A stretch of DNA of 56,063 bases, taken from positions 1-56,063 of IMG/VR virus record IMGVR_UViG_3300025875_000029; one strand, written 5' to 3'. Each line of letters begins with the position of its first letter. Position 1 is the stretch's first letter. Below the pieces are notes generated by a model. The model searched no databases. It was not told the DNA's origin and saw only the letters and a list, made by a program, of their open reading frames with translations. A program made the position numbers and the translations under genes. Source of the stretch: a virus. Taxonomy: Duplodnaviria > Caudoviricetes. Shown in pieces: positions 2,217-48,950 of the stretch.

Positions 2217-2603
2217 ATGCCGAACAGCAGCCCTGACCCGATCCCGTACGTCCCGGTCGCTGGGCTACGGGTGCCCGCGACGGTCGTCCCGCGCATTATC
2301 CGGGCCCTGCGTGGGGTATACCCGGAGATCACCACCGGGAAGGACGACGAGGCGGCGGTCCGGGCGGTCCTGCTGTATTGGATCGACTACACCGTGACCT
2401 CCCACGAGGCGACCCTGGCCGAAAGCGAGGTGGCGGTGGAGGCGGCGATCTCGGAGTTGTTCGAGGATCGCCTCCGACGAGTCCAGGAAGCCCGGGATCG
2501 GGCGAAGGCTGCAGTGTCCACGATCCAGCAGGTCCCGACGCCCCCGGCCCCGACGGATCTGTCGCTGGGGGACTTCGCAGGTTACGCACCGGACGTGTTC
2601 TGA
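2217..2603 (+). CDS. Hypothetical protein (128 aa)
   Basis: ATG 2217 follows the tail-fibre stop; GC3-biased codons. Confidence 0.65.
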   Translation: MPNSSPDPIPYVPVAGLRVPATVVPRIIRALRGVYPEITTGKDDEAAVRAVLLYWIDYTVTSHEATLAESEVAVEAAISELFEDRLRRVQEARDRAKAAVSTIQQVPTPPAPTDLSLGDFAGYAPDVF

Positions 2604-2656
2604 CGGCGGGGAGCGTACCCTCGACGCTGGAGCTACATCCAACGAGAGGAACAGAC

Positions 2657-3658
2657 ATGCCCACCTCATATAACGGCTGGTCCGCCGGTGAGGGTTGGTC
2701 CGTCGCCGGTGGTCAGCTGGAGAAGCTGATCGTCGCCGGGGAGCCGTTCGCCCCGGGGGTCCGCGCCGGGGACGTCCACGACGTCCTGGAGTACGTCGCC
2801 AACCAGATCCACCTGCGGGTCCAGCCGGTGACCTTCGGCCACTCGGCCGACGACTGGGGCTACAGCTACCGGGCGAACGTGAACAACCCGAGCCAGCTGT
2901 CGTGCCACGCCTCAGCTACCGCCATCGACTACAACGCCGTGTCTCACCCGAACGGCAAGTCCGGCACCTGGACTCCAGCCCAGAAGGCGGAGATCCTGAA
3001 GATCCTGGCTGAGGTCAACAACGTCGTGGTCTGCCTGTGGGGCTACGACGAGATGCACTTCGAGATCCGGGGCACGGCGGCAGCTGTGGCCACGGCTGCG
3101 ACCCGGGTCCGGGCGGCTGGCGGCTCTGCCTCCGGCGTGCAGGTGTCGGCCAAGTACCCGATCATCGGGCGGATCGCCGACACCTACCGGCGGGTCGGCC
3201 CGGCGGTCCTCGGGGTTCCCCTGGGCCCGGAGGTGCCGACGCTGGACCCGGTCGGCCGGTGGCAGAACTTCGAGTTCGGGCGGATCTACTTCCACCCGTC
3301 GGTCGACGGTGGCAACGCCCATGCGCTGCAGGGCGAGATCGAGCAGTGCTTCAAGCGGCTGGGCTGCGAGCCGGTGGTCGGTTGGCCCACCACCGACGAG
3401 TCCGTCCCGTTCTACGGGAGCACCGGCCGCTACAACCACTTCACCGGCGGGTGGTCGATCTACTGGACCCCCGAGGTCGGCCGGGCCTTCGAGGTCCACG
3501 GCCGGATCCGGGATAAGTGGGCCGAGCTGGGCTGGGAGCGCAGCGCCCTTGGCTACCCGATCTCGGGCGAGGTCGAGCAGGCCGACGGCAAGATCATCCA
3601 GCGGTTCCAGCACGGCGGGGTCGTCTGGGACGGCGTGTCGGCGAAGGTCATCGAATAA
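2657..3658 (+). CDS. Endolysin: M15-type Zn peptidase plus C-terminal LGFP-like cell-wall-binding repeats
   Basis: GAGAGGA RBS; SYNGW N-terminus; SCHASATAID (H-x6-D) and DEMHFE; repeats LGVP/VGWP/LGYP with Q-x-F-E-x-G. Confidence 0.9.
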   Translation: MPTSYNGWSAGEGWSVAGGQLEKLIVAGEPFAPGVRAGDVHDVLEYVANQIHLRVQPVTFGHSADDWGYSYRANVNNPSQLSCHASATAIDYNAVSHPNGKSGTWTPAQKAEILKILAEVNNVVVCLWGYDEMHFEIRGTAAAVATAATRVRAAGGSASGVQVSAKYPIIGRIADTYRRVGPAVLGVPLGPEVPTLDPVGRWQNFEFGRIYFHPSVDGGNAHALQGEIEQCFKRLGCEPVVGWPTTDESVPFYGSTGRYNHFTGGWSIYWTPEVGRAFEVHGRIRDKWAELGWERSALGYPISGEVEQADGKIIQRFQHGGVVWDGVSAKVIE

Positions 3659-3667
3659 CCCGAGGTT

Positions 3668-3728
3668 CAGTTCACGGCCAGTGGGGCAGGTACACTCGAA
3701 GTCGTACACGCTCCACTGGCCGTAACTG
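3668..3728 (+). promoter_or_regulatory. Long imperfect hairpin between endolysin and holin
   Basis: CAGTT-CACGGCCAGTGG...CCACTGGCCGT-AACTG inverted repeat. Confidence 0.55.
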
Positions 3729-3739
3729 GGGGTTCTCTG

Positions 3740-3946
3740 ATGGGCAAGCACAGGGTGGTGAACCAGCCGTCACCGTGGCCGGTCGCCAAGGTAGCGGCGT
3801 CCGGTCTGGGCGGGTCGGCCGCGACCGTCCTGGTGTGGGCTGCCACCGAGGTCGGGGTCGACATGCCCGTCCCGGTCGCCGGTGCCATCGTGACCCTGGT
3901 CGCCTTCGTCGCCGGGTACTTCAAGCGCGCAGCCGCGAGTGAGTAG
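3740..3946 (+). CDS. Holin (2 TM)
   Basis: 68 aa with two hydrophobic segments, directly after the endolysin. Confidence 0.75.
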   Translation: MGKHRVVNQPSPWPVAKVAASGLGGSAATVLVWAATEVGVDMPVPVAGAIVTLVAFVAGYFKRAAASE

Positions 3947-4316
3947 GTTCCTGGCCGACGGGTCGATCGCGATACCGGGGGTGGACCTGGTAGCTCTAGC
4001 AACGATCAGCGTACCGGGGATCCTAACCCTGGCGGTCCTGGCGGTCCTGTTCGGCTGGATCTTCCCCCGCACCACGGTGACCCGGCTCTGGAAGGAGCTG
4101 GACGCCAAGGAGGCGGACAACAAGGAGCTGCGGACCACCCTGGAGAAGCAGGCGGACCTGCTGGAGAAGCTGGTCAACCAGGGCGGCGACGTGAAGGTAG
4201 CCCTGCAGGCCACCCTGTACGCTATGCAGGAGATCCAGGTGGCGGGCCGTCATGCGGCGGGTATGGAGCCCCTCCCCCGGAGCGCGATGCAGCTGCAGAC
4301 GGACAGGGAGACGTGA
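3939..4316 (+). CDS. Membrane protein with coiled coil (lysis cassette)
   Basis: N-terminal TM ending GWIFPR, then a heptad-rich helix. Confidence 0.7.
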   Translation: MSRFLADGSIAIPGVDLVALATISVPGILTLAVLAVLFGWIFPRTTVTRLWKELDAKEADNKELRTTLEKQADLLEKLVNQGGDVKVALQATLYAMQEIQVAGRHAAGMEPLPRSAMQLQTDRET

Positions 4317-4534
4317 CGATGGCTATCTGGCCGTTCAACAAGGAGCGGCCGATCGAGACCAAGCCGGACCCCGCGACCCGGAACCTGTCGAGCCGGACCG
4401 AGCGCCTGGCGGCGGAGTTGGACGCCCTGGGACTGGAGACCCGAGCGGTCGCCCGGGAGGCCCAGCACATCCGCGAGAACAACCACTTCGGGGCGGCCCT
4501 GGTCGCTTCGATGGCGAGAAGGAGCCCATCGTGA
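4313..4534 (+). CDS. Small lysis-cassette protein
   Basis: GTGA overlaps at both ends; ENNHF motif. Confidence 0.6.
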   Translation: MTMAIWPFNKERPIETKPDPATRNLSSRTERLAAELDALGLETRAVAREAQHIRENNHFGAALVASMARRSPS

Positions 4535-4842
4535 CGCTCGACGTCATCCTGTACGGCCTGGTCGCGGTGACCCTGGCTTACCTGATCTACCGGTACGCCC
4601 GGTACTCGGCCTGGTGGCAGACCGACGCTGGGCGGGCCTTCATGTCGATGAAGATCTGCCTGTTCGTCCTGACGATCTACGGGCTGTGCTCGGTGGCGAT
4701 CGAGGCGGACGGCTGGCGCGAGGTTGCCCGGCCGATCGTGGTGGGCTTGATCTGGCTGGCGCTGGTGTACCAGGTCACGGTGGTGATCGGACGGCAGGGC
4801 GGCTGGAGTCGCCGCCGGTCGCTGAAGGACGGGCGCGACTAG
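4531..4842 (+). CDS. Holin-like 3-TM membrane protein
   Basis: AAGGAG RBS, GTG 4531; three hydrophobic helices and a WWQTDAGRAFM motif. Confidence 0.7.
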   Translation: MTLDVILYGLVAVTLAYLIYRYARYSAWWQTDAGRAFMSMKICLFVLTIYGLCSVAIEADGWREVARPIVVGLIWLALVYQVTVVIGRQGGWSRRRSLKDGRD

Positions 4843-4847
4843 CCCGG

Positions 4848-4878
4848 TTTGCGTATACCGCAAACGCCGTGGTTTAAT
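4848..4878 (+). promoter_or_regulatory. Early-type promoter/operator, TTGC-N7-GCAA...TGG-TTTAAT
   Basis: TTTGCGTATACCGCAAA palindrome; same layout recurs at 6223, 6797, 36979, 37957, 38420 and 40476. Confidence 0.8.
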
Positions 4879-4927
4879 TGTCCTACGGCCGGAACTGAGC
4901 CCCCGGCCCACAGACAAGGAGCACACC

Positions 4928-5791
4928 GTGGCACTCGACACCTTCCAGATCAACCTCCTCCGCGAGGGCAAGGCGTACCGGGACGAGATCGGGGAGTCCG
5001 ACCCGATCCTGGACGCGATGCTGGAGCGGGCCCTGGCCTAGACCCACACCGCGACCGCCGTCCCCGAGGCCGACGCCCCGGCCCGCACCCCCGGCACCAG
5101 CTCGGGCAGCAGCAACTACCGCCGCACCGAGGAGCCCGCCACCGACAAGCAGCTCGGCTACCTCGCCAGCCTGGTCGGCAAGCTGAACTGGACCCTCGGC
5201 CAGGACATCCCTAACCCGACCAGCAAGAAGCGCGCCAGCGAGCTGATCGACCGCTGCAGGATCGCCATCCAGCGCGGCGAGATGAAGCCGACCTTCGCCG
5301 ACCGGGACCGCCCCCAGCTCGCCCAGGTCACCCGGAAGCCCACGGAGCGCCAGCTGGAGGTCCTCACCGACCTCTGGGGCCAGCGGGTCCACGAGCTGGG
5401 CGAGGACGTCCCGGACGACATGACCTTCGACGACGCCTCCGGCTTCATCGACCACCTGCTGAACTACTGCCCGCGTAAGCCCCGGGGCGAGGCCCAGGCC
5501 GCCCACGGGATCCGCGCCGGGCACTACGCCTGGGCCGACGCCGAGGGCACCGTCCACTTCTACGAGGTGGCCCGGAACGGCCGGATCTACGTCCAGGCGG
5601 GCCCGGCCCGGCACCCGTACAACGGGAAGCTCAACGAGGCGCTGGAGGCCATCAAGGCGGACCCGAAGTCGGCCGCCGCGCTCTACGGGACGAAGATCGG
5701 GCGCTGCGGCCGGTGCCACCTGGAGCTGACCGACGAGGACAGCCGGGCGCGGGGCCTCGGCCCGAAGTGCGCCAGCAAGTCCGACTGGTGA
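4928..5791 (+). pseudogene. DUF6011-like Zn-finger protein interrupted by an in-frame TAG at 5039-5041
   Basis: AAGGAG RBS and GTG 4928, in frame with ORF 5282..5791. Coding-like sequence continues across the TAG. C-terminal CGRC...SRARGLGPKC. Confidence 0.65.
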
Positions 5792-6057
5792 GGGGATTCC
5801 CGAGGGAGGCCAGCCACGAGGCTGGCCTCCCGCTCTCCCCGATGGAGGCCCGCGCGGTCTACCGCTCGCTGAAGCTCAAGACCGACTGCAAGGCCCCGGG
5901 GTGCACCCGGGGAGAGGTCGGGGTGGCCCGCGAGTGGAACCACGGCCAGGGCCAGGCCCCCAGATTCCGGGTCGCCCGGCACCAGGTCGTCAAGGGCGGC
6001 GCGTGGTGCACCAACTCCCGGATCGAGGTCCCCCGAGACGCAGTTCGGGGGCTGTGA
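5788..6057 (+). CDS. Hypothetical Cys/His-containing protein
   Basis: GTGA overlap with the previous stop. Confidence 0.55.
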   Translation: MRGFPREASHEAGLPLSPMEARAVYRSLKLKTDCKAPGCTRGEVGVAREWNHGQGQAPRFRVARHQVVKGGAWCTNSRIEVPRDAVRGL

Positions 6058-6093
6058 CGGCAGGACCGGTCCCGCCCATGCTATCCTCGTGGT

Positions 6094-6218
6094 CTGGGTG
6101 GGTCGGCTCCTGCTCCAGAAGGCGGCCCGTCACGGGTCGAAGGTAGGGACAGTCGGGTTGCTCCCCCGATCTCTCCCGAGGACCTCCCCGTGGCGGGCCG
6201 CCCCATGCGCCCGACACC
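6094..6218 (+). ncRNA. Candidate rod-shaped small RNA with UGCUCC loops
   Basis: Extended -10 TGCTATCCT at 6079-6087. Nested helices GTCGG/CCGAC, GGCGGCCC/GGGCCGCC, GTCACGGG/CCCGTGGC, AGGT/ACCT, GGGA/TCCC, GTCGGG/CCCGAT. G-U wobbles favour the + strand. Confidence 0.6.
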
Positions 6219-6222
6219 TCGA

Positions 6223-6253
6223 TTTGCGCGCGACGCAAACCGCATGGTTAAAT
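6223..6253 (+). promoter_or_regulatory. Early-type promoter/operator driving a leaderless mRNA
   Basis: TTTGCGCGCGACGCAAA...TGG-TTAAAT, then 6 nt to ATG 6260. Confidence 0.8.
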
Positions 6254-6259
6254 TTCCGT

Positions 6260-6751
6260 ATGGCCACCGCAGAGATCCCCGCCCCCGGCACCGTCACCTG
6301 CGACAACTGCGGCGAGGTGCACCCCGCCGAGTACAGCCACGACGGGGACCACGGGCAGGGCCCGATCTTCGTCGTCTACTGCACCAAGGACGACCTCGCC
6401 GACTACTACCAGGAGTCCCGGGTCATCCGCCCGGAGCCCGCCCCGGTAGCGCCGGTCGAGGGTCAGACGGAGCTGCTGCTCCTCCCGGACACCACCCCCA
6501 CCGACGACCGGAAGGCGGAGATCGCGGCGATCGTCAACGAGGAGTACACCGCCCAGTACGCCGAGGTCGACCGCCACCGGCGGACCGGCTACGGCCAGTG
6601 CGCCTGCGGCTGGGAGCCCAAGCGCCCCAACGGAGCCCACGCCAACGTCGCCACCGGGGTCCACGTGAAGATGGCCCGCACGAAGGCCGAGAAGACCTGC
6701 CAGGCCAACATCGACCAGCGAATGGCCGACACCCGCCGCCCCATCAACTGA
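6260..6751 (+). CDS. Hypothetical Zn-binding protein (leaderless)
   Basis: CDNC and CACGW motifs; no SD; ATG at the predicted +1. Confidence 0.75.
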   Translation: MATAEIPAPGTVTCDNCGEVHPAEYSHDGDHGQGPIFVVYCTKDDLADYYQESRVIRPEPAPVAPVEGQTELLLLPDTTPTDDRKAEIAAIVNEEYTAQYAEVDRHRRTGYGQCACGWEPKRPNGAHANVATGVHVKMARTKAEKTCQANIDQRMADTRRPIN

Positions 6752-6796
6752 AGGAACCGACACCAGGCTCCCGCCAGCGACACCGGCGGGGGCCGA

Positions 6797-6827
6797 TTTG
6801 CGTTCCAAGCAAAACCCGTGGTTTAAT
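6797..6827 (+). promoter_or_regulatory. Early-type promoter/operator driving a leaderless mRNA
   Basis: TTTGCGTTCCAAGCAAA...TGG-TTTAAT, then 6 nt to ATG 6834. Confidence 0.8.
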
Positions 6828-6833
6828 TTACGC

Positions 6834-7037
6834 ATGGCCACCACCGAGCACGCCGCCCATTGCATCGACCTCGCCAAGTACAGCGTCCAGGACGAGCTGG
6901 ACGCCCAGGGCATCGAGACGGCCCTCGACATCACCGACCCCGAGGCCGTCCTGACCATCCCGGCCTGGAACATGACGATGGACGAGGTCGTCGCCCAGTG
7001 GCTCGCCGACGGCAACATCACCTGCAACTGCCACTGA
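6834..7037 (+). CDS. Small acidic hypothetical protein (leaderless)
   Basis: ATG at the predicted +1; ends CNCH. Confidence 0.7.
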   Translation: MATTEHAAHCIDLAKYSVQDELDAQGIETALDITDPEAVLTIPAWNMTMDEVVAQWLADGNITCNCH

Positions 7038-7048
7038 CCGACCGGCCC

Positions 7049-7084
7049 CGAGGCCCCGGCTCCCCACGAGGGACCGGGGCCTCG
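7049..7084. terminator. Bidirectional terminator-like hairpin between convergent genes
   Basis: CGAGGCCCCGG...CCGGGGCCTCG. Confidence 0.6.
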
Positions 7085-7089
7085 CCATG

Positions 7090-8553
7090 TCAGGCCAGGG
7101 CCCGCCACTGGGCCGTAGTCAGCACCCGGATCTGCTCGTCGGTCTTGGTGGCCAGTAGCTCCCGGACCCGCTCGTCCACCGTGTCCGGCGTGACGTAGTC
7201 CCGGACCGTGACCGGCCGCTCCTGGCCGATCCGGTGGATCCGGCGCATCGCCTGCTGGTTGGTGCTCGGCCGGTACGACTTCTCCACGAAGATGCACATG
7301 TCGGCCGCCGTCAACGTCAGGCCCTCCGCCACCACGGGCAGGCTGCCGACGATCACGTCCAGCGAGCCCGCCTGGAACGCCTCCACGGCCTTCCGGCGCG
7401 CGGGGCGGCTGGTGGTGCCGTCGATGATCGCCGTGGACGCCCCGAGGCTCCGAGATACCTTCGCGCACGCCTGGAGTGTGTCCTTGAAGTGGCCCAGGAC
7501 CAGGGTCGGCCGGGCGCGGTACTCCAGGTCCGCCGCCAGCTGGTCCAGCTTCCCGCTGCCCCGGTCGCCGGACAGCACCGGGAGCCCGGTGCAGCACTTC
7601 GCGAGCTTGACATTGAGCGCGGCGTCGCCCCAGGCGACGATTTCATGGCCCTCCTCGGTCCAGGCGACGAAGTCTCGCTTCAGCGCCCGGTAGACCTTCG
7701 CCTGGGGGCCGGTCATCGGGGTCAGCACGGTCTGCTCGGTCAATGGCGGCAGGTCGGTCAGGACGTCGTCGCGGAACCGCTGCAGGAACCTGTCCCCCAG
7801 GTTCGCTGCGGCAAAGGCCCGGTAGTGCTCGCACGGGTCAACGGAGCGGCGGCGGGAGCACTCGTCGGTACACCCCAGCATCGATCCGACACTGGGGTTC
7901 CCGCCGGAGAACCGGGTGGGGGAGGTGTCGAACCACTGCTCGGCCCAGCGCCAGTACGACCCCAGCTCGCCTCCCCGCTGGGCCCGCTCGGGGTACATCA
8001 GCTGCAGGCCGACGAACAGTTCGTGCGCCCAGTTCGGCATCGGGGTCCCCGACGCCTGGTGGACCTGCCCGGCGCGGGCCGCCAGCTGCCGCGCGGTCGA
8101 GGTCCAGACGGTCTTGCGACCCTTCAGGTAGTGCGCCTCGTCGAAGATCACCGTCCCCCAGTCCCGGTCCAGCTCGGGCGGGAGCTTGTCGGACATGACC
8201 AGGATCTGCTGACCGGTCTTGGTCAGAACCGGGACGGGCTCCTTGCCCTTCTCCTTGGTCACCTTCGGGACCCGCTGGTTCAGCCGGGAGTAGGCGGTGA
8301 CGGTGACGTCCAGGTCCGGTGCCCACTTCCCGATCTCGGTAGCCCAGGTCCCGGAGTCGATGACCATCGCCGGGGCGACGACAAGGGTCGGGCCTTGCGC
8401 CGCCTCCAGCAACTGCCGAGACTTGCCCAGGCCGGGCTCATCCGCCAGGAACGCATGCGGGTGCTCCTTCAGAAACTGGACGCCGTCGGCCTGGAACGGG
8501 CGCAGCGGTGACCGGCCCGAGCTTCCCCCGGGCCGGGGTCGGATCCTCGGCAT
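7090..8553 (-). CDS. SNF2-like SF2 DNA helicase
   Basis: LRPFQ Q-motif, ADEPGLGKS Walker A, IFDEAH, SGTP, EGLTLT, QAMRRIHRIGQ. Confidence 0.92.
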   Translation of the reverse strand: MPRIRPRPGGSSGRSPLRPFQADGVQFLKEHPHAFLADEPGLGKSRQLLEAAQGPTLVVAPAMVIDSGTWATEIGKWAPDLDVTVTAYSRLNQRVPKVTKEKGKEPVPVLTKTGQQILVMSDKLPPELDRDWGTVIFDEAHYLKGRKTVWTSTARQLAARAGQVHQASGTPMPNWAHELFVGLQLMYPERAQRGGELGSYWRWAEQWFDTSPTRFSGGNPSVGSMLGCTDECSRRRSVDPCEHYRAFAAANLGDRFLQRFRDDVLTDLPPLTEQTVLTPMTGPQAKVYRALKRDFVAWTEEGHEIVAWGDAALNVKLAKCCTGLPVLSGDRGSGKLDQLAADLEYRARPTLVLGHFKDTLQACAKVSRSLGASTAIIDGTTSRPARRKAVEAFQAGSLDVIVGSLPVVAEGLTLTAADMCIFVEKSYRPSTNQQAMRRIHRIGQERPVTVRDYVTPDTVDERVRELLATKTDEQIRVLTTAQWRALA

Positions 8554-8933: not shown

Positions 8934-8977
8934 TGTCCGGCACGCACTTCCCGCCCTCTCCCGCCCCAGGAGCCGAA

Positions 8978-12572: not shown

Positions 12573-12686
12573 TTTGCGCCGGTCGCATGGCGTGTGTTTT
12601 GCTAGGCGGGCATACGCAGCACGGAGGTCCAGCCCGAACAGCCCGGTCTGGTAGCCTGATTCACCCCCGGCCGGAGCAGGCCCGGG
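12573..12686 (+). promoter_or_regulatory. Degenerate early-type promoter and leader with GGAGCA hairpin
   Basis: TTTGC-N7-GCAT...TGT-TTTGCT; CCCGGCC-GGAGCA-GGCC(C)GGG at 12666-12686. Confidence 0.55.
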
Positions 12687-12712
12687 AGCCGACACGACAG
12701 AAGGAGCACAGC

Positions 12713-28118: not shown

Positions 28119-31100
28119 ATGGCTGTAAGTCTGGTTGCTGGTAGCCCGGTCGTCTCCAACGGGGCGACCGGGACCGCCGTCGCCACCGCCACCCCGACTC
28201 TCCCTGCAGGGACCACCACCGGCGACACCGACCGGGTGTTCATCTTCGCAGTCGGCACGACCACCGCCACCATCGCCACCCCGACCGGCTGGACCTCGCT
28301 GCTCAACGTGGCGGTCGGGTCCGGGACCCTGGGAGCTGGGACGGGCGCTCGCCGGGTCGCTATCTTCTACCGCGACCGTGACACCGCCTGGGCCATGCCC
28401 GCCGTCCCGCAGCCGTCCCAGGCCGCCCCCACCATCGCCGTCTCCGCCGTGACGCTCCGGAAGCCGTCCGCCGAGCAGTGGGACGCCCCGGTCGTCGCTT
28501 CCGGGACCGACCCCGCCACTGGGGCGGCGTTCAGCGCGACCGGTGGGTCGCTTGCTCAGGACACCGGCGGCTACCTGCTTGCCTGCCTGGCGCTGCCCAC
28601 CAACCCCACCTCCGTGTCCTCGCCCAACCTGACGACCTCCGGCGTGGCCTACGGGGCGCTCGCTACCCCCGTGGCGTTCGGAGGTAGCCAGACCGGTAAC
28701 GACGCCTACCAGGCGGTCTACGGCCGGGCCATCACCACCGGGGCCACCGCAGCTCCCACGCTCGCCGCCACCCTGGGCGCGTCCATGATGGGCGGAGCTG
28801 GCTGGGTCGAGCAGTCTTCCTCGTCCCCGGTCCCCGTCACCTACGCGAGCCTCGCCTTCACGGGTGCCAATGGCTCCGCCCCGGTCGGGGTCACCGGGAC
28901 CCTGATCAACGGTGCGACCCGCCAGGTCCAGAACAACGCCATGGTGTTCACGGGCCCCGTCACCGCCTCGGTGAGCGCAGGGCCGACGGTGCTGAACGTG
29001 ACGCCGGTCAGCGACAGCGAGATGACGGTGGACTTCACCCTCAGCTCACTCGCGGAGCAGTACCTGTCGTTCTCAGTCCGGGCGGACGCCACCCTGGACA
29101 ACTGGTCCAGCCCGCAGAACGGTTACCACGTCGCCCTCACCCCGAGCGTCGCCGGGGCGAAGGTCAACCGGATCGTGGCCTACACCACGACCACGCTGTA
29201 CACCCGGCCCGTCACCTGGGCGATCAACACCGTCTACCACTTCAGGTTCCGGGTCGTCGGTGCGCTTGTCAGCTTCCGGCTCTGGGTAGACGGCGCGGCC
29301 GAGCCCACCACCTGGGACTACAGCGCCACCGACGCGACCCCGTACCTCACTGCCGGAGTCCCCGTCTTCGGGTACGCCAACGGGGCGGTGGCGGGGGCCA
29401 AGACCGTCACCATCGACAACTGGACCCTCACCAACGGCGTCGTCGGCGCGGCCCCCGTGGACACCACGGCCCCGACCCCGCCCACCCTGACCGCGACCCC
29501 CGTCAGCCCCACCCAGGTGAACCTGTCCTGGTCCGGCGCGACCGACGCTGTGGGCGTCGCCGGGTACATCGTCAAGCGCGGCGGGACGGTGCTGGACCCG
29601 GCCGTCATCGGGACCAGCTACTCCGACACCACCGCCCCGCCCGGCACGACATCGAGCTACACCGTCCAGGCTTACGACTCGGCCGGGAACACCTCGGTCG
29701 ACTCCAACGCTGCCACCGCGACCACCGCCGCCGCACCTGTCATCCCCGCGAAGTGGGCGACCTACAACAGCGCCGCCGCACAGGTCGCTACCCGGCCCTT
29801 CCGGTACATGTCGCTCGGCGACTCGATCTCGGAAGGGCAGGGCGCGAGCACCCGTGCGAAGCGCTGGGTCAGCCTGGTCACCGCCGAGATGCGAGCCCGG
29901 TACCAGCCCGCCGGGGTCGTCGGCGGCGAGAACTACATCCCCGCATGGAACGGCGTCTACGCTCCGGACTCCACCTGGGCTGCGCCGACCTCCCAGACCG
30001 GGACCCTGGGTTACACCGGGACCGACGGCTCGCTGGGCTACCGCGAGCTGACCTTCCAGACCGGGGCGACCGCGACCTACACCGTGGTCGGCACCTCGAT
30101 GGACCTGTGGTACGCCACCGGTGGCGGTAGCTTCTCCTACCGGATCGACGGCGGAGCAGCGACCACGGTCTCCGCCACCGGGACCTACCAGTCCGCCATG
30201 AAGGTCAACGGCATCTCGCTGGGCGCGGCCGGTACGCACACCGTGGTGATCACCGGGGTGTCGGGCCCCGTCAAGTTCCAGGGCATCACAGTCTACAACG
30301 GGGACAGCGCGGCTGGGGTCCAGCACTACGACTCGGCCCAGTCGGGGTACAAGACCAGCGACTTCCTGCTCGACCGGGTCCAGTTCGCCCGGTCGATGGC
30401 GGCGGTGGCCCCGGATTTCGTGACGATGGCCCTGGGTACGAACGACGCCAGCAACGGCGTCGCCGCCTCCACGTTCAAGACCCAGACGCAGTCGTTGATC
30501 ACCGACCTGAACAACTTGCCGTCCCCGCCCTCGATCCTACTGATCCTGCCCTACCGCTACGCTTCCACCTCGACCACGATCTGGGACGCCTACCGGGTGG
30601 CGCTGCAGCAGCTCGCCACTGCGAACGCCAACTGCGACTTCCTGGACCTGACGGCGACGATGCCGACCACCAGCGCCGGTGGCTACTACTCGTCCGACGC
30701 GCTGCACCCGAGCGACACTGGTCACGCTTTCATCGCCGCCCGGGTGGCGGAGGCGCTGCCTGCGGTCGCAGCGGTGGTCACCGTCGCCGGTGGTGTCACC
30801 GGCGCGGGCACCCTGTCCGCGACCTCGGCCTACGCGGACACCGAGGCGGCGGCGCTCACCGGGGCGGGCAGCCTGACCGCCACGGGCACCACTGCGGTCG
30901 TGGTCAACGCCGCCCTGGCCGTGGACGGGGTCCTCACCGCTGAGGTCGAGGGCCCGCCAGCTTCCACCGCCGTCGAGACGTTCACCTACGCCGACGGCTC
31001 CCCCTGGCCCTCCACCTGGACCCCGACCTCCAGTGGCGGGGTCGGCACGCAGACCGTCGACGTCCAGGGCGGCCGGGGTCGGCTGGTTGTGTCGAACAAC

Positions 31101-33566
31101 ACCTGGGTCAGGTCCCGTTACAGCTCAGCTGTGAACGCCACCGACGGTGGGCTACTGGCCACGATCGAGATCACCCCGGGCGAGTACGCCAACGGGGAGC
31201 TGTTCTTCAACCTGAGCAGCGACGCCGGGTCGGACTACCGACCCGACAACGGCATGTCGATGCCGATCTACATCTCGCAGGGCACGCTGGGCAGCTTCAC
31301 CCAGCTGACCCGGAACGTCAACGGCGTCCACTCCAACATCGGCTACAACGAGATCCCGCTGGACCTGCGAGGCAAGTCCAGGTTCAAGGTCCGGTTCGAG
31401 CGTGAAGGGGCGGAGATCCGCGCCCGGATCTGGGACCCGGCTACCGCCGAACCGACCAGCTGGCTGATCCAGAACAGCAACCCGACCGAGGTTCCGGTCT
31501 CCATCGGCAAGCCCGGTTTCTCTCTGAAGTCGCAGTCTGGGGATCCGCTGGCCGTCTTCGTCGACGACGTCCAGATCTACGTCCCGGGGGCGGTCCTGCC
31601 GGAGGTGGTGGTTGACGGGCCGATGTCGGGGTCGGCCACCCTGATCACGACCACCAGCTCCACGCTGCAGGCCGGTTCGTCCGCTCTCGGGGACGGGTCG
31701 CTGTCCGCCTCCGTGACCGCCACGGGAACCGTGACGCCTGTCGGGCTCTTCGGGGACGGGTCGCTGACTGCGACGGTTACCCTGGACGCTCCGCCGGTGG
31801 ACGGTCCCATGGCTGGTGGTGCCTCCCTGGACGCCGCCTCCGGTGGTACGGCGTCGGCCACGGTCGCCCCCGCAGGGACCGGCGACCTCGGGGCGGTGAC
31901 CTCCGGGTACTCGGGGAGTGCGCTGGCGGACGCCGTCGGGGTCGGGGTGCTGTCGGCGACGGTCAACAACTCCCAGGCGGTGGCGGTCACTTTCACCGGG
32001 ACCGCGGACTCCCCGGCTGGGGCGACCCTCGGGACGAGCTACGCGGCGACCCTGGACCCGGTGGGTGAGCTGGGGGCCGAGGTCGCCCCGGGCGGGGTCT
32101 CGGTCGATGTCGAGGTCGGCGGATACGGACAGTTTGATCTTCAAACTGTCTCGGCGTCGTCGGCCGACGTCGCCCTCGACACCACGGGCACCCTGACCGC
32201 CGAGGTCGGGGTCGTCGACGTCCCACGGGCCGGGCAGCTCGACGGCACCGGCGCACTCACCGCCGCAGTCATCGTCGCCCCGGTCGTGTCCACCGGCGCA
32301 CTCACCGCAGCTGCCGTACTGGCCGCGACCGTCACCCCGGCCGACATCGAGAACCCCACCACCGCCGGGGCAGGCGACCTCGCCGCAACCGCCGCCTACT
32401 CCACCGCACTGCCCGGCGGACTGCCCGCCGACGGGACGCTGACTGCCGAGGTGACCATCGCCCCGATGGTGGTCGAGGCCCAGCTGGACGGGATCACCGC
32501 CCTGGACGCCGGGGTCGGGGAGCAGGTGGCGGTCCTGTACCTGGACCTCACCTCGACCGGGCAGCTGGACGCCACCAGCACCCGAGGGCCCATCACCGCG
32601 ACCGGGGCTATGCTCGGGACAGGGTCGTCCGCCGCCTCCGTGGCCCCTTCCTCGCCCTCGGACGCCCCGGCGGGGTCACGGGGCGACCTGGCCATCGGGT
32701 GGACCGTCGCGGGCCAGCGAGACACCCAGCTCGACGGGGCAGGGACCCTGACCGCAGTGGTGGTCGCGGAGGGTCAGCCGACGGCAGCGGACCTCACCGC
32801 TGCGGGCGACCTGAGCACCGTCGTGGTAGCGGCCCGGACCGAGGCTCCGATACTAGACGGGGCGGGACAGCTCGCCGCCACCGTCCAGACCTCGATCCAG
32901 GCCGCCGCCGACTTTACCGGTACGAGTACGGTCGCCACCTCAGTCGACGCCCCGGTCCTGGTCGACGTTGCCGACGCCGGGACCTCGGACCTGGGGGCGA
33001 CCGTCACTCTCGGGGCGGTCACCACCCCGATCGGATTCTCCGGTGCTGGGGCCCTCACCGCCACGGTCAGCACTGCGGTGGCGGTGGCGGTCAATCTGGA
33101 CGCGACCACTACCGGACCGGCGACCTCGACCGGTGCGATCACCGCCGACTCCACTCTCACCTCAACCTCGTACCTGGACGCCGGGGCGGCGGTCACCCGT
33201 GACCTCCCGCTAGACTCGGCCGGGACCCTGGCTATCAGTGCCGGGCAGGCCGCTACGAGGGCCGCCGGAGCTACGGGGGCGGGCTCGCTGACCGCCACGG
33301 TGAGTGTCGGTCTGCAGGTGGATGCGGTGTTTGCCGCGCTCGGGGTCACCGAGATCGACGCGTTCGCCGACCTGGTGGCCGATGTCGACCTCGACGGCGA
33401 CGCGAAGATGACCGCGATCGGGGGCGCGAAGTTCGAGTTCGACGTCTACGGGCCGCTCCCGGTCGAGCGGTACGCGGTCGCCGTCGCCGGTCCGACCTTG
33501 AACTTCCGGAGCATCGGGCCCGTATACTCGGGTCCGGATTACACGGCTACGATCCTGGAGGATTGA
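28119..33566 (+). CDS. Giant multidomain adhesin/fibre with lectin-like, Fn3 and SGNH esterase domains and G-x-G-x-L-x-A repeats
   Basis: DTTAPT...LSWS.ATD.VGV.GY...YTVQAYDSAGN (Fn3); GDSIS/LGTND/DALHP (SGNH); repeated GxGxLxA over the C-terminal ~650 aa. Confidence 0.8.
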   Translation: MAVSLVAGSPVVSNGATGTAVATATPTLPAGTTTGDTDRVFIFAVGTTTATIATPTGWTSLLNVAVGSGTLGAGTGARRVAIFYRDRDTAWAMPAVPQPSQAAPTIAVSAVTLRKPSAEQWDAPVVASGTDPATGAAFSATGGSLAQDTGGYLLACLALPTNPTSVSSPNLTTSGVAYGALATPVAFGGSQTGNDAYQAVYGRAITTGATAAPTLAATLGASMMGGAGWVEQSSSSPVPVTYASLAFTGANGSAPVGVTGTLINGATRQVQNNAMVFTGPVTASVSAGPTVLNVTPVSDSEMTVDFTLSSLAEQYLSFSVRADATLDNWSSPQNGYHVALTPSVAGAKVNRIVAYTTTTLYTRPVTWAINTVYHFRFRVVGALVSFRLWVDGAAEPTTWDYSATDATPYLTAGVPVFGYANGAVAGAKTVTIDNWTLTNGVVGAAPVDTTAPTPPTLTATPVSPTQVNLSWSGATDAVGVAGYIVKRGGTVLDPAVIGTSYSDTTAPPGTTSSYTVQAYDSAGNTSVDSNAATATTAAAPVIPAKWATYNSAAAQVATRPFRYMSLGDSISEGQGASTRAKRWVSLVTAEMRARYQPAGVVGGENYIPAWNGVYAPDSTWAAPTSQTGTLGYTGTDGSLGYRELTFQTGATATYTVVGTSMDLWYATGGGSFSYRIDGGAATTVSATGTYQSAMKVNGISLGAAGTHTVVITGVSGPVKFQGITVYNGDSAAGVQHYDSAQSGYKTSDFLLDRVQFARSMAAVAPDFVTMALGTNDASNGVAASTFKTQTQSLITDLNNLPSPPSILLILPYRYASTSTTIWDAYRVALQQLATANANCDFLDLTATMPTTSAGGYYSSDALHPSDTGHAFIAARVAEALPAVAAVVTVAGGVTGAGTLSATSAYADTEAAALTGAGSLTATGTTAVVVNAALAVDGVLTAEVEGPPASTAVETFTYADGSPWPSTWTPTSSGGVGTQTVDVQGGRGRLVVSNNTWVRSRYSSAVNATDGGLLATIEITPGEYANGELFFNLSSDAGSDYRPDNGMSMPIYISQGTLGSFTQLTRNVNGVHSNIGYNEIPLDLRGKSRFKVRFEREGAEIRARIWDPATAEPTSWLIQNSNPTEVPVSIGKPGFSLKSQSGDPLAVFVDDVQIYVPGAVLPEVVVDGPMSGSATLITTTSSTLQAGSSALGDGSLSASVTATGTVTPVGLFGDGSLTATVTLDAPPVDGPMAGGASLDAASGGTASATVAPAGTGDLGAVTSGYSGSALADAVGVGVLSATVNNSQAVAVTFTGTADSPAGATLGTSYAATLDPVGELGAEVAPGGVSVDVEVGGYGQFDLQTVSASSADVALDTTGTLTAEVGVVDVPRAGQLDGTGALTAAVIVAPVVSTGALTAAAVLAATVTPADIENPTTAGAGDLAATAAYSTALPGGLPADGTLTAEVTIAPMVVEAQLDGITALDAGVGEQVAVLYLDLTSTGQLDATSTRGPITATGAMLGTGSSAASVAPSSPSDAPAGSRGDLAIGWTVAGQRDTQLDGAGTLTAVVVAEGQPTAADLTAAGDLSTVVVAARTEAPILDGAGQLAATVQTSIQAAADFTGTSTVATSVDAPVLVDVADAGTSDLGATVTLGAVTTPIGFSGAGALTATVSTAVAVAVNLDATTTGPATSTGAITADSTLTSTSYLDAGAAVTRDLPLDSAGTLAISAGQAATRAAGATGAGSLTATVSVGLQVDAVFAALGVTEIDAFADLVADVDLDGDAKMTAIGGAKFEFDVYGPLPVERYAVAVAGPTLNFRSIGPVYSGPDYTATILED

Positions 33567-36978: not shown

Positions 36979-37034
36979 TTTGCGCCCAGAGCAAGGCCAT
37001 GGTTGAATAGTCCTGTGGCCGGGGAGCACCGGCC
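36979..37034 (+). promoter_or_regulatory. Early-type promoter/operator plus GGAGCA-loop 5' hairpin
   Basis: TTGC-N7-GCAA, TGG-TTGAAT, GGCCGG-GGAGCA-CCGGCC. Confidence 0.8.
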
Positions 37035-37055
37035 AGGACTCGACGAGGAGCAGAC

Positions 37056-37535: not shown

Positions 37536-37603
37536 CTGCACGACCCGCCGCCGGGCAGATCCCGGCGGCGGGGCACCACCCCAGCACCGAGCTAGGAGCC
37601 GAA

Positions 37604-37918
37604 ATGTCCCAGTACGACCCCGCCCTTGACGACGCCGCCCGCGAGGCCCGCCTCCGCAAGGAGAACAAGAAGCCCCGGCGGTACTTCCCCTGGGTGTTCC
37701 TCGCGATCCAGCTGCTGTTCGTGATCTGGATCGTGTCCGCCATCGTCGGCAACTCCGGGGACCCCGTGGGAGACTGCGGGTCGCTGTCCCAGCAGGCGTG
37801 CAACGACGCCGAGTCGGTCGGCACCGGTATCGGGGTCGCCCTGGTGGTGATCCTTTGGCTGGTCGTGGACTTCATCCTCGCGATCACCTACCTGGTGTTC
37901 AAGGCCGTCAAGCGCTGA
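37604..37918 (+). CDS. 2-TM membrane protein with external Cys pair
   Basis: TAGGAG RBS; two TM helices around C-x7-C. Confidence 0.8.
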   Translation: MSQYDPALDDAAREARLRKENKKPRRYFPWVFLAIQLLFVIWIVSAIVGNSGDPVGDCGSLSQQACNDAESVGTGIGVALVVILWLVVDFILAITYLVFKAVKR

Positions 37919-37956
37919 CCCGGCCGGGGGCCCTGGCGAGCACCCAGGGCCCCCGG

Positions 37957-38016
37957 TTTGCGTTACCCGCAAATCCCGTGGTTTAATTTTGGGGTACGGC
38001 CGGGGAGCACCGGCCG
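37957..38016 (+). promoter_or_regulatory. Early-type promoter/operator plus GGAGCA-loop 5' hairpin
   Basis: TTTGCGTTACCCGCAAA, TGG-TTTAAT, CGGCCGG-GGAGCA-CCGGCCG. Confidence 0.8.
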
Positions 38017-38376: not shown

Positions 38377-38419
38377 ACCACCGGGGGCCCGGCCGACACG
38401 CCGGGCCCCCCGCCCCCAG

Positions 38420-38478
38420 TTTGCGCGGGACGCAAGTCCCGCGGTTAGATTGCCCCATCGGGCCGGGAGCACGGCCCG
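38420..38478 (+). promoter_or_regulatory. Early-type promoter/operator plus GGAGCA-loop 5' hairpin
   Basis: TTGC-N7-GCAA, CGG-TTAGAT, CGGGCCG-GGAGCA-CGGCCCG. Confidence 0.8.
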
Positions 38479-40431: not shown

Positions 40432-40475
40432 TCGCACACCGCCCGGGGTCGTCGCGACATGCGGCGGCCCCCGGG

Positions 40476-40531
40476 TTTGCGGCCCACGCAAACCCGTGGT
40501 TTACTGGTCATACGGGCGAGGAGCATCGCCC
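40476..40531 (+). promoter_or_regulatory. Early-type promoter/operator plus GGAGCA-loop 5' hairpin
   Basis: TTTGCGGCCCACGCAAA, TGG-TTTACT, GGGCGA-GGAGCA-TCGCCC. Confidence 0.8.
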
Positions 40532-45982: not shown

Positions 45983-46365
45983 CCGCTCCGCTCCACCCGT
46001 TCGACGAGACGCAGGTGGCCCAGCTCCAGGCGGAGCTGGGCACCACCCTCGACTTCGAGAATCTGACGGCCCGGTACGTCCGGCTGGAGGGTGACCTCGA
46101 CGCCGTGATCACAGAGGTGCTCCGGATCCGGCTGGCCGACATCAACGCCGGTCCCACCACGTTCAGCATCCCCGGCGAGTACAGCCAGGACGCGACCGCC
46201 CAGCAGAAGGCGCTGGAGGCCCGGCTCGGTGTGAACGCGACGACCGCCCAGGCGTTCGTCAACATCGCCCGCTCGAAGTTCTCCCGCCCCGACGAGCGGG
46301 CGATGGACACCGAGGAGCGCACGGTCCGCCGTAGCGCGTGGCGGCAGGGTCGCCGGGGCCGGTGA
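45979..46365 (+). CDS. Head-to-tail adaptor (putative)
   Basis: Position, size and FSIPGEYSQ motif. Confidence 0.6.
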   Translation: MTAPLHPFDETQVAQLQAELGTTLDFENLTARYVRLEGDLDAVITEVLRIRLADINAGPTTFSIPGEYSQDATAQQKALEARLGVNATTAQAFVNIARSKFSRPDERAMDTEERTVRRSAWRQGRRGR

Positions 46366-48950
46366 CCGAGCCGATCCGTCTTCCCGCCTCGCAGAAGCAG
46401 GCGTCCGAGGCGTTGGCCGACGCCTACGGCGAGGCGTGGAAGCGGATCAACGACGCCCAGCTCGCCCTGGGCGACGACCCGCTGCAGGCGCGGAAGAAAG
46501 CCCGGCTGAACGAACTGTCCGCCATGGTCAGCCGGGAACTGATGGAACTGGACGGCAAGGCCCGCGAGTACGCCAGCCAGAAGCACGGCGGGATCTTCAC
46601 CGCAGCCTCGATCCGGGCCGCTAAGGCTGTGGACCCGGAGGCGCTGGCGTACGTCCAGCCGAACATCGAGGCGGCGGAGAAGCTGGCGAACGGCCTGGAG
46701 CGGGAGCTGCTGGAGGCTACCGCCCACGTCGACCAGACCACCAAGCAGCTGATCCGGAAGATCGGCCGGGATGCTGGTTTGAAGACCGCCATCGACGGGA
46801 AGACCGCGAAGCAAGCGGGGACCGAGATGGCGCGGATCCTCCGGCAGTCCGGTATCCACGCGGTGACCTACGCCAACGGGGCGAAGGTCGGCCTGGAGTC
46901 CTACGCCCGGATGGCGATCCGCACCTCGACCGCGCTGGCGTTGAACCAGGGTGCGATCCAGGGTTCGGAGGACGCGGGGTGCCTGTGGTGGGAGATCTTC
47001 GACGGCCAGACCTGCGGGTGGAAGAACCACAAGGACCCGGAGCGGGCGCACGGGAAGGTCGTCTCGCGCGAAGAGGCACTCGCCTACCCGATCGCCCACC
47101 CAAACTGCCGCCGAGCGGTCGGCCCCCGGCCGGACCTCGGTATCGACAAGTCGGTCCGTGGAGCCCCCAAGCCCCAGGTGAAGACCAACGCCGATATCGC
47201 CAAGAAAGCCGCGAACAACACCCCACCGGCGCAGACTCCGGGCTCGGTGGTCAACGGCGTCCAGACGTTCAAGATGGGGCCGATCGGTGGTGGCGGGCCG
47301 GTCCTGACCAGGGAGCAAGTGGCGGCCAACATCGCCCAGGCTGAGGCGGAACGGAAGGCCACCCTCGCCAAGTACGCCCAGGTGATCCAGGAGCAGAAGG
47401 CTAAGGACGCGGCGGAGCGGGCCGCCAAGGCAGCTGCGAAGAAGGCCAAGTCCGAGGCCGCCCAGCAGGCCGCGTCGCTGCCGGACCCGACCCCGACCAA
47501 CGGCGAGTTCGTCTACCCGGATTACCTGTTCCAGGTCGCCAAGATCGACAAGCGGCTGAAGGCCAGTCAGTTCAAGCTGAACCCTCGCACTCAGAAGCTG
47601 ATCACCGACCGACTGGCCGCTGCCGACTTCGACCCGGACCTGGCGTCCGAATACGACCTGCTGGTCTGGGTACAGGAGACCAGCGCCCGGGTCGGTAACG
47701 GCGACGACCTGTCGGCGGCGATGCACGCGCTGGGCCGCCACAACGAGAAGCGGGTTGTCCGGTACCTGGTCGACGGTGGCCGGATGCCGGATCCGATCGA
47801 CCTGACCCCCGGCACGGCGAAGACCGACATCGTCCCGAGCTACCCGAGGACCGACGCCGACACGTTCTGGCAGCCGACGGTCCCGGTCGACGCCGACAGC
47901 GTGTCCGCCCGGGGCCAGGAGGTGATCCGCCAGTTCAACGAGGTCTGGGGCGAGGACGACCTTACCCCAGCTCAGCTGGCGGCGGTGAAGGCGTACAGCC
48001 GGGGGTCGGACAAGGCGATCAACACCCGACTCCGGAAGGGTGCGAAGGACAACGCCCAGACCACCGCGCTCCGGGCGGCGATGCGACCGCTGCCCCGGTC
48101 GACCCGGGTCATGCGAGGGGTGGACCTGGACACCTTCGGGTACAAGGCGATCACCGACCTGGATTACCAGGGCTTCGACGACTACGACGGTCAGATGTCG
48201 TTCCTGCGGGCCATGGTCGGCAACACCTTCGAAGACCGAGGCTTCATGTCCACCTCGGTTAACCCGAACGGCGGGTTCGCGGCTGAGGTGGACATCGTGA
48301 TCGACGTCCCCGAGGGCTACCGGGGGGCCTGGGTCGAGCCGCATTCCAACTCGCCGGGCGAGGCTGAGCTGCTGCTGGACCGGGGTACCCGGCTGGAGAT
48401 CTACAAGGTGGAGGACGCCGGGGTCGGCAGTAGTGCCTCGCTGGCGAGGATCTACGCCCGGGTGGTGCACCAGGACGACACTTACGACTACGACCCGAGC
48501 AAGGCGGCCGAGTCGCTGGAGCGGGGCAAGAAGACCCCGGGGACGGGCACCGAGGAACCGCCACTGCTGCGGCGGACCGCGAAGATCACCGAAGCTCCGG
48601 ACAGGTCGCTGTACCCGTCCCAGCTGCCGCCGCCGGTGGTGGAGGCCAAGCCGGGCGGGGACCTGGTGGAGGTCGTCCAGGTCGTCGGCCCGGTGGACAA
48701 GTACAGCAAGCTCCCGTTCGACATCCCGAAGCGCCCGCCGAATGTCGCCAGTTCGCCGAAGGTCGAGCTCACCGGCGTTACCGAGTCGGGGACGATCGAG
48801 TTCGCCGACGGGACCACCTTGAATCCGATCCAGGGTATGACGTTCCGGAATGGCCAGGTCACGAACATGGGCGGGCCGTCTCGGGTGAAGTGGGCCAAGA
48901 CGATCGGCCAGCTGTGGAACCAGCACAACGGAGGAGTGGTCCAGACATGA
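46362..48950 (+). CDS. MuF-like minor capsid protein fused to a VIP2-type ADP-ribosyltransferase
   Basis: YARMAIRT...PIAHPNCRR (MuF); YS....IN..LR, VMRG, GFMSTS, EAELLL (R-STS-ExE). Confidence 0.88.
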   Translation: MTEPIRLPASQKQASEALADAYGEAWKRINDAQLALGDDPLQARKKARLNELSAMVSRELMELDGKAREYASQKHGGIFTAASIRAAKAVDPEALAYVQPNIEAAEKLANGLERELLEATAHVDQTTKQLIRKIGRDAGLKTAIDGKTAKQAGTEMARILRQSGIHAVTYANGAKVGLESYARMAIRTSTALALNQGAIQGSEDAGCLWWEIFDGQTCGWKNHKDPERAHGKVVSREEALAYPIAHPNCRRAVGPRPDLGIDKSVRGAPKPQVKTNADIAKKAANNTPPAQTPGSVVNGVQTFKMGPIGGGGPVLTREQVAANIAQAEAERKATLAKYAQVIQEQKAKDAAERAAKAAAKKAKSEAAQQAASLPDPTPTNGEFVYPDYLFQVAKIDKRLKASQFKLNPRTQKLITDRLAAADFDPDLASEYDLLVWVQETSARVGNGDDLSAAMHALGRHNEKRVVRYLVDGGRMPDPIDLTPGTAKTDIVPSYPRTDADTFWQPTVPVDADSVSARGQEVIRQFNEVWGEDDLTPAQLAAVKAYSRGSDKAINTRLRKGAKDNAQTTALRAAMRPLPRSTRVMRGVDLDTFGYKAITDLDYQGFDDYDGQMSFLRAMVGNTFEDRGFMSTSVNPNGGFAAEVDIVIDVPEGYRGAWVEPHSNSPGEAELLLDRGTRLEIYKVEDAGVGSSASLARIYARVVHQDDTYDYDPSKAAESLERGKKTPGTGTEEPPLLRRTAKITEAPDRSLYPSQLPPPVVEAKPGGDLVEVVQVVGPVDKYSKLPFDIPKRPPNVASSPKVELTGVTESGTIEFADGTTLNPIQGMTFRNGQVTNMGGPSRVKWAKTIGQLWNQHNGGVVQT

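Follow-up and report, generated by a model that had tools for sequence, protein, structure and literature searches.

A candidate small RNA with loops complementary to ribosome-binding motifs in a tailed-phage genome

Structure and conservation of the element

The DNA analysed here is the virus record IMGVR_UViG_3300025875_000029 of 56,063 bp (the whole of which is called the window in the following), with a G+C content of 69% and a completeness of 72% according to CheckV; judged by its gene content, it is a tailed actinophage. Between a 71-residue open reading frame (ORF, 5842-6057) and the gene of protein P0001 (ATG at 6260), its plus strand carries an extended -10-like promoter element followed by a tightly folding segment. 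This element very probably constitutes a functional structure of a plus-strand RNA. That it is an independent small RNA (sRNA) of the plus strand acting by base pairing is the reading preferred here, held tentatively and with slightly less than even confidence. The element comprises the following parts, of which P1 to P3 denote helices and L006 the relative described below:

6079..6087, plus strand: extended -10-like element TGCTATCCT, of the form TGnTAnnnT
6088-6092 pairing with 6203-6207, plus strand: possible terminal helix P1, whose pair 6090-6205 changes from U-A to G-C in L006
6092..6206, plus strand: predicted RNA of about 110-120 nucleotides (nt), both ends inferred
6093..6119, plus strand: hairpin P2, with 10 pairs including two G.U pairs, a bulge at U6114 and the loop UCGGCU at 6103-6108
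6121..6202, plus strand: long interrupted hairpin P3 of 82 nt, with a basal helix of 16 bp, five shorter segments and the apical loop UUGCUCC at 6158-6164

The start of the RNA was set about 5-9 nt past the -10 element, and its end was placed at the base of the long hairpin, beyond which the sequence is no longer conserved. Concerning the fold, the 140-nt stretch containing the element reaches a minimum free energy (MFE) of -72.8 kcal/mol on the plus strand (z-score -2.5), and 2 of 200 shuffled sequences fold as well; the z-score of the minus strand (-2.7) is near this value. A difference between the strands is visible only for the exact unit 6088-6207, not for the 140 nt: the MFE of this unit amounts to -72.1 kcal/mol on the plus strand and to -66.3 kcal/mol on the minus strand, and in L006 to -71.9 and -65.9 kcal/mol, respectively. 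The plus-strand fold of the unit contains four G.U pairs. The apical loop, which an earlier note on this DNA had placed at 6158-6164, is fully accessible there, with an opening cost of 0.01 kcal/mol and 6159-6164 unpaired. The folding of about 125 nt described in the same note is borne out, about 120 nt forming a short hairpin and an 82-nt interrupted rod. The statement that the element contains no credible ORF also holds, because the substitutions follow paired RNA and not codons; an open frame from 6089 continues into the next gene, and a small ORF on the minus strand was discarded as not conserved in L006.

The relative L006 comprises 12 kb of a metagenome contig of 58 kb and was found with a pattern of the apical stem in which the loop was left as N. 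Over 6091-6204, 112 of 114 positions are identical to it, whereas the flanking genes are 70-79% identical. Both differences, G to A at 6125 and C to U at 6198, are partners in P3 (G-C to A-U), and the first diverged bases of the flanks, U to G at 6090 and A to C at 6205, are partners in P1; the covariation in P1 is weak evidence, because these two bases sit at the edge of the diverged flanks. Among the 47 consensus pairs of 6088-6207, all four substitutions form two compensatory pairs and none is disruptive in this comparison of two sequences, such that the covariation proposed earlier as a check of the structure is found in the one relative. A further contig, L003, begins inside the element and matches L006 at 100% identity over 4410 nt; the two therefore count as a single independent relative. 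The hairpin situated 3' of the DUF6011 gene shares no sequence between the window phage and L006.

No relatives were obtained by a search of viral contigs with the DUF6011 protein, by a strict promoter pattern or by an alignment search (A1) of metagenome contigs, and a looser promoter pattern returned G001 alone, which was already known. For P0001 one relative was found, P0002, on a contig of 883 bp. Phages in GenBank contain no copy of the element and exhibit only distant matches to the helicase and to DUF6011 (30-35% amino-acid and 68% nucleotide identity). The apical-hairpin pattern found no true copy in 185,579 species genomes, both hits being chance matches; the pattern hits L007, L008, L009, L010, L012 and L013 proved to be chance matches on inspection as well. 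Rfam has no match at gathering scores in the whole window, and at E-values up to 10 only microRNA-precursor hairpin models match in 6000-6300 (E 0.18-7), far below their gathering scores. ARAGORN reports no transfer RNA or transfer-messenger RNA in the window.

Three runs were examined as contigs. Run X1 contains 94% of the sampled words of the query and includes a contig of 107 nt that corresponds exactly to 6091-6197, with A at 6125 and a depth of 32.7, its flanking contigs having a depth of 14-16. This contig and a joint of 5791 to 6071 agree with the presence of an additional, L006-like variant in run X1. In run X3, which belongs to a different study, a contig of 151 nt and of depth 2 spans 6043-6182 and exhibits 12 differences and 3 gaps. 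Those differences that are listed are all situated in 6125-6153, with five substitutions and three insertions or deletions in mid-P3, and none in 6074-6124; the listing does not extend to positions closer than about 31 nt to either contig end, and the apical loop is outside its scope. Within these limits, the -10 element and P2 appear unchanged in the X3 variant while mid-P3 varies. Although its label is RNA-Seq, run X3 carries a flag as probable DNA and was set aside as evidence of expression.

The near-identity of the copies might also reflect a recently exchanged mosaic module or a site acting at the DNA level (a recombination hot spot, an origin or a cruciform), without selection on an RNA. 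The restriction of the element to related phages and the occurrence of L006-type variants in run X1 agree with such an origin, as do the depth of the X1 core contig, about twice that of its neighbours (one reading of which is the same core in more than one flank context), and the break of the L003 assembly inside the element. The copies nevertheless differ, and they do so only by compensatory pairs; four G.U pairs and a strand asymmetry of 6 kcal/mol fit an RNA and not a DNA cruciform, and there is neither a second copy in the window nor a true one in the species genomes searched. Such an origin, whether as an exchanged module or as a DNA-level site, is considered quite improbable.

Concerning the promoter, the extended -10 claimed in the earlier note is present at 6079-6087: TGn is combined with TAnnnT as in sigma-70-type extended -10 elements, the motif is conserved, and its distance to the RNA fits a geometry taken from two leaderless genes. 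The L006 counterpart TGATACCAT keeps TGnTAnnnT with its five defining positions, and all three substitutions fall on the four degenerate positions (chance 4/84); for the X3 variant no difference is listed at the -10. The window contains seven copies of TGnTAnnnT on the plus and three on the minus strand, and four of the six other plus-strand copies (12649, 17553, 25899 and 33873) lie just past a gene stop or before a Shine-Dalgarno sequence or start codon. At 33873 (plus) and 8852 (minus), the -10 is followed by 6 nt and ATG; from this leaderless geometry, a start of the RNA at about 6092-6096, in the first bases of P2, is therefore expected.

Complementarity of the loops to leaders and ribosome-binding regions

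The UGCUCC of the apical loop is complementary to GGAGCA, and the whole P2 loop UCGGCU to AGCCGA, which is part of the sequence AGGAGCCGA-N-ATG; AGGAGCCGA itself is complementary to UCGGCUCCU, which consists of the P2 loop and its 3' flank. The P2 loop and 3' arm (6102-6116) contain the anti-ribosome-binding-site sequences GUCGGCUCCU and UGCUCC. The candidate targets are the following:

12664..12693, plus strand: leader of the Sak4-like gene, with a 5' GGAGCA-loop hairpin followed by GGAGCCGAC
37016..37035, plus strand: 5'-terminal GGAGCA-loop leader hairpin of class I promoter 36980
37594..37606, plus strand: ribosome-binding region AGGAGCCGA-N-ATG, complementary over 9 nt to RNA 6103-6111; further regions of this kind start at 8968, 20342, 25692 and 39906
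37997..38016, plus strand: GGAGCA-loop leader hairpin of class I promoter 37958
38459..38478, plus strand: GGAGCA-loop leader hairpin with a different stem, of class I promoter 38421
40514..40531, plus strand: GGAGCA-loop leader hairpin with a third stem, of class I promoter 40477

GGAGCA is indeed the loop of five leader hairpins, as had been claimed, four of them being perfect and one bulged. The four perfect hairpins, whose stems measure 6 bp or more and whose loops are situated at 37023, 38004, 38466 and 40520, all belong to class I leaders, and GGAGCA is the joint commonest loop among the 188 perfect plus-strand hairpins with stems of at least 6 bp. They follow the promoters at 36980, 37958, 38421 and 40477 with stems of 6-7 bp, are 5'-terminal in the predicted transcript, and keep the loop invariant over three different stems (GGCCGG, GGGCCG and GGGCGA). 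The fifth, bulged hairpin at about 12664-12686 follows a second promoter type (TGGTAGCCT) and is the one GGAGCA leader visible in L006, where its loop is kept together with GGAGCCGAC, the latter being the complement of RNA 6102-6110. Apart from the Sak4-like recombination gene, the genes equipped with GGAGCA leaders are four small ones located between terminase and portal. In the predicted structures the exact complement is unpaired on both partners, which is the display expected for a kissing-loop contact. Over the whole window GGAGCA is in excess (66 occurrences vs 38 expected), mostly from coding GAG-CAG codon pairs. As an observation in its own right, the leader hairpins combine a Shine-Dalgarno-like loop with covarying stems, and possible roles are those of an mRNA stabiliser, a ribosome standby site or a protein site.

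Ribosome-binding regions were surveyed at 61 plus-strand gene starts, which remained from a heuristic list of 62 after one false call inside the element had been dropped. In the region from -22 to -1 of these starts, AGGAGC is the commonest hexamer (17/61). GGAGCA occurs in seven of the start regions (top 0.22% of hexamers), which agrees with the earlier claim that it is part of several Shine-Dalgarno sequences, and AGCCGA occurs in five (top 0.34%). The ribosome-binding motif of the phage is AGGAGC(A/C) and not GGAGG; it often extends to AGGAGCCGA-N-ATG, and AGGAGCCGA is found before the start codons at 8978, 20360, 25702, 37604 and 39916. The composition-weighted chance that a hexamer complements any of the 14 top hexamers is 0.007; in the RNA, this is the case at 8 of 110 positions, all of them in 6103-6111 and at 6159. 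A further motif, CCGACAC, was rejected as not enriched, since 23 matches are expected against 31 observed and 8 of 100 shuffles attain the latter number.

For longer matches, perfect complements of the RNA were counted in 61 segments spanning -25 to +3 of the starts and compared with 1000 shuffles. Complements of 8 nt are present in 14 segments (shuffle mean 5.2; 7 of the 1000 shuffles reach 14) and those of 9 nt in six (shuffle mean 1.4; six are reached by 9 of 1000). For the minus-strand RNA, the corresponding counts are 13 segments with 7-mers, three with 8-mers and one with a 9-mer.

These counts bear on the alternative that the minus-strand transcript is the functional one, its apical GGAGCAA loop being a further site for a factor that binds GGAGCA loops. 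Read on that strand, the apical hairpin is indeed stem-GGAGCAA-stem, and the z-scores of the 140-nt stretch are similar on both strands. The unit fold is, however, weaker by 6 kcal/mol and loses P2, no promoter motif reads leftwards from 6207-6260, and the convergent helicase gene already possesses a hairpin of its own at about 7045-7080; the complementarity to ribosome-binding regions is small, as would be expected, and no role is proposed from it. A functional minus-strand transcript is consequently regarded as very improbable.

In cofolding, the best net energies are obtained for the starts at 37604 (-15.4 kcal/mol), 25702 (-14.8 kcal/mol) and 8978 (-13.1 kcal/mol). Shuffled RNAs fold far less tightly than the real one (-53 vs -69.5 kcal/mol), and any pairing of the latter must therefore start from its two loops of 6-7 nt. 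A fold too tight for extensive pairing also agrees with a structured RNA that is bound by protein (as decoy, scaffold or processed stable RNA) and whose complementarity is incidental, and so does the near-invariance of sequence and structure along the rod, which is more typical of RNAs contacted by protein than of sRNAs conserved in a seed only. On the other side, no Rfam family matches at E-values up to 10 beyond the noise of microRNA hairpins, the X3 variant changes mid-P3 freely while P2 stays the same, and both loops match ribosome-binding motifs; a protein-bound RNA with incidental complementarity is rather unlikely.

Promoters and neighbouring genes

Seven plus-strand sites, referred to as class I promoters, consist of TTTGCG-N5-CGCAAA, 3-4 nt and then (G)TGGTTTAAT; they are found at 4849, 6224, 6798, 36980, 37958, 38421 and 40477. 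The palindrome TTTGCG-N5-CGCAAA overlies the -35 region ahead of the extended -10 TGGTTTAAT, and the motif is kept in two L006 copies; its form points to a regulator of the phage that is dimeric. The sites at 6224 and 6798 have 6 nt between the -10 and ATGGCCACC, and the same arrangement is found in L006 and, translated, at the N-terminus of P0002. In total, four genes appear to be leaderless (-10, 6 nt and ATG), namely those at 6260, 6834 and 33888 on the plus strand and at about 8837 on the minus strand. The leader of promoter 4849 carries another hairpin, GGCCGG-AACUGAGCCC-CCGGCC at about 4889-4910; its counterpart on the reverse strand of L006 (about 4680-4705) has the same 10-nt loop and one stem pair changed from G-C to A-U. 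Strong GC hairpins at 37924-37956, 38383-38410 and 40456-40476 abut the TTTGCG of the next promoter, whose T-run may therefore double as a terminator U-tract. Directly beside the candidate RNA, two features are situated:

6030..6051, plus strand: GC hairpin CCCCCGA / TCGGGGG at the end of the 71-residue ORF, 5' of the candidate promoter
6222..6262, plus strand: class I promoter TTTGCG-N5-CGCAAA + TGGTTAAAT, outside the RNA, for the leaderless gene with ATG at 6260

The element has a gene end (6057) on one side and a class I promoter (6222) on the other, a location that would also suit a 3' structure belonging to the early operon upstream and acting in cis, i.e., a terminator, an insulator or a stabiliser of the 3' end, of which the sRNA would be a by-product or a 3'-untranslated fragment processed at P1. 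GC hairpins likewise precede the class I promoters 37958, 38421, 40477 and 6798, and P1 pairs both ends with a compensatory change, as for a processed unit. The other promoter-proximal hairpins, however, measure 20-33 nt and the only one comparable between the two phages is not conserved in sequence, whereas the element is 98% identical in them; it lacks a U-tract, is separated from the promoter by 15-20 nt and has a conserved promoter-like -10 directly in front of it. As a cis-acting structure, moreover, it would match ribosome-binding motifs with both loops by coincidence. A function purely in cis is thus judged unlikely, and if the element were only a terminator, its extreme sequence conservation would still need an explanation.

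The hairpin of L006 equivalent to that at 6030..6051 has an unrelated sequence. The 71-residue ORF (5842-6057) is a strain-specific insertion; it is missing in L006, and a contig of run X1 joins 5791 to 6071. Elsewhere in the window the following genes are found:

Tail protein
2378-4839: LGFP-repeat endolysin and holin
Small-gene block; SNF2 helicase on the minus strand
Further genes: PD-(D/E)XK nuclease, Sak4-like protein, primase-polymerase, DNA polymerase and PurZ-like enzyme
35535: terminase
41469: portal
44577: major head protein

The closest phages in GenBank are Streptomyces phages such as Araceli, with 68% nucleotide identity in the helicase gene. The first 130 or so residues of the long SNF2 helicase ORF look non-coding and a leaderless start at about 8837 (minus strand) lies inside it, such that the helicase probably starts further in than the ORF called. 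The protein encoded at 20764-21816 matches phrog_1211 (E 2.4e-87), listed as 2-aminooxy adenylosuccinate synthetase, which we take to be the PurZ family; this would suggest that 2-aminoadenine replaces adenine in the DNA. A protein of 1815 residues (28119-33563) contains a GDSL lipase/acylhydrolase domain at residues 734-876, its remainder being without family match. In the head-associated protein of 870 residues (46338-48947), residues 581-692 match a PHROG of ADP-ribosyltransferase type (E 1.3e-13) and other parts match minor-head and protease families. An attachment site (attP) or a host-derived sequence was rejected, there being no integrase among the 30 window ORFs scanned (Pfam, PHROGs) and no true match in the species genomes searched.

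Interpretation and comparison with known systems

The earlier note had read the element as a trans-acting sRNA. Conservation, compensatory pairs, the preference for the plus strand, the promoter motif and the second loop UCGGCU speak for this reading, whereas the net cofold test and the pairing of the second UGCUCC do not.

A number of observations weigh against an sRNA that acts by base pairing. The second UGCUCC (6111-6116) belongs to GCUCCUGCUCC, which is present at 6106-6116 as the earlier note had stated, yet its description as unpaired is wrong, since 6111-6116 needs 8.6-10.4 kcal/mol to open: in this region only 6103-6108 (UCGGCU) is a loop, and 6109-6116 form the 3' arm of P2, with unpaired probabilities of at most 0.01 except for the U6114 bulge. 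The cofold test places 16 of the 61 ribosome-binding regions at or below -6 kcal/mol, the shuffle mean being 40 and 95 of 97 shuffles reaching 16; cofolding cannot model loop-loop contacts, and its ranking of targets was discarded as a means of discrimination, since unstructured shuffles obtain better values than the real RNA. Complements of 7 nt (25 of 61 segments) are marginal, 44 of 1000 shuffles doing as well; the list of gene starts is rough and has visible errors, and the chance value of the apical-loop match is inflated by selection bias, because it was this match that first drew attention. As to the promoter, TGnTAnnnT is in total not more frequent than by chance (10 copies vs 12.6 expected), a consensus scan of 4500-7500 found no promoter of two hexamers (-35 and -10), and no convincing -35 hexamer is situated 16-18 nt upstream, a conserved ACGGCAGGA lying at 19-20 nt from the -10. 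At the other end, the 17 nt following the GC-rich hairpin P3 contain no U-run, and a consensus scan for intrinsic terminators lists nothing here. P1 conflicts with a start site past the -10, as it needs an RNA that begins further upstream. The copies available are two full ones and a partial one, all from related phages; run X1 also contains L006-type variants (A at 6125, and the 5791-6071 joint that skips the 71-residue ORF), and none of the runs listed as containing the stretch is on record as RNA. Finally, the proposed targets had been called early genes; the Sak4-like gene and the four small genes between terminase and portal are not demonstrably early.

For an sRNA of the plus strand, the following course of events may be envisaged. 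Host RNA polymerase would start a few bases 3' of the extended -10 (6079-6087), and the resulting RNA of about 110-120 nt would fold into the 5' hairpin P2 followed by the rod-like P3, which might also end or stabilise the RNA. Only two loops would then be free, UCGGCU at 6103-6108 and UUGCUCC at 6158-6164, facing the AGGAGCCGA and GGAGCA motifs, respectively. Contacts between loops, or between a loop and a single strand, would seed pairing in trans with phage mRNAs and would change their translation or stability, repression being the default guess for the direction of the effect. A mechanism of the anti-ribosome-binding-site or kissing-loop type is plausible as a hypothesis. The widest version, in which a rod-shaped phage sRNA runs a phage-wide regulon by kissing five GGAGCA leader loops with its apical loop and seeding on the AGGAGCCGA regions with its P2 loop, is doubtful as a whole. 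Such an RNA could tell phage from host messages, because the motif of the phage is AGGAGC and not the canonical GGAGG.

If this reading is true, the RNA could time the translation of phage genes or keep it within limits; its confirmation would reveal a way in which a phage can address its own messages as a class, and the RNA would represent a new Rfam family. The element offers a compact case, with a conserved candidate sRNA, five invariant-loop hairpins and the AGGAGCCGA ribosome-binding regions in one genome, whose promoters, several of which drive leaderless genes, are readable from sequence as two classes of motif.

In the literature searched, supplements aside, neither the element nor the GGAGCA leader hairpins were found described; the phage regulatory RNAs found there belong to enterobacterial phages (P1 and P7, for example), and none to a phage of high-GC Gram-positive hosts. 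RNA I/RNA II of ColE1 and CopA/CopT of R1 are kissing-loop controls by antisense RNAs that are cis-encoded and fully complementary. Equally to these systems, recognition by the candidate would start between complementary loops (UGCUCC and GGAGCA), whereas its complement extends over 6-8 nt and it would act in trans. Factor-independent terminator hairpins without U-tract are found in Actinobacteria, and the candidate resembles them in being a GC-rich hairpin that ends a transcription unit without a U-run; unlike them, it is four times longer than the other intergenic hairpins of the phage and conserved in sequence, not only in shape.

The 6C sRNA of Actinobacteria (Mycobacterium, Streptomyces) pairs with several mRNAs through C-rich hairpin loops and without an RNA chaperone (PMC6486639). 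The candidate is similar in that its unpaired nucleotides lie in C-rich loops and face ribosome-binding motifs rich in G, in a high-GC Gram-positive setting; it differs in being phage-encoded, longer, built on an 82-nt rod and without Rfam match, and in its loops, which exactly complement AGGAGC-type motifs of the phage itself.

The c4 antisense RNA of phages P1 and P7 is a phage-encoded RNA of about 77 nt with three stems, which RNase P processes at a GGW motif; its loops a' and b' pair in trans with sites on phage mRNA, one of them covering a ribosome-binding site (PMC5320573). The candidate likewise possesses two loops complementary to leader or ribosome-binding sequences of the phage and a possible terminal helix, and its conserved block starts with GGU, comparable to the GGW of c4. 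It belongs to a different host clade, exhibits no similarity to c4 detectable by Rfam and seems to have a promoter of its own, and it would target many genes across the genome, whereas c4 acts on one operon.

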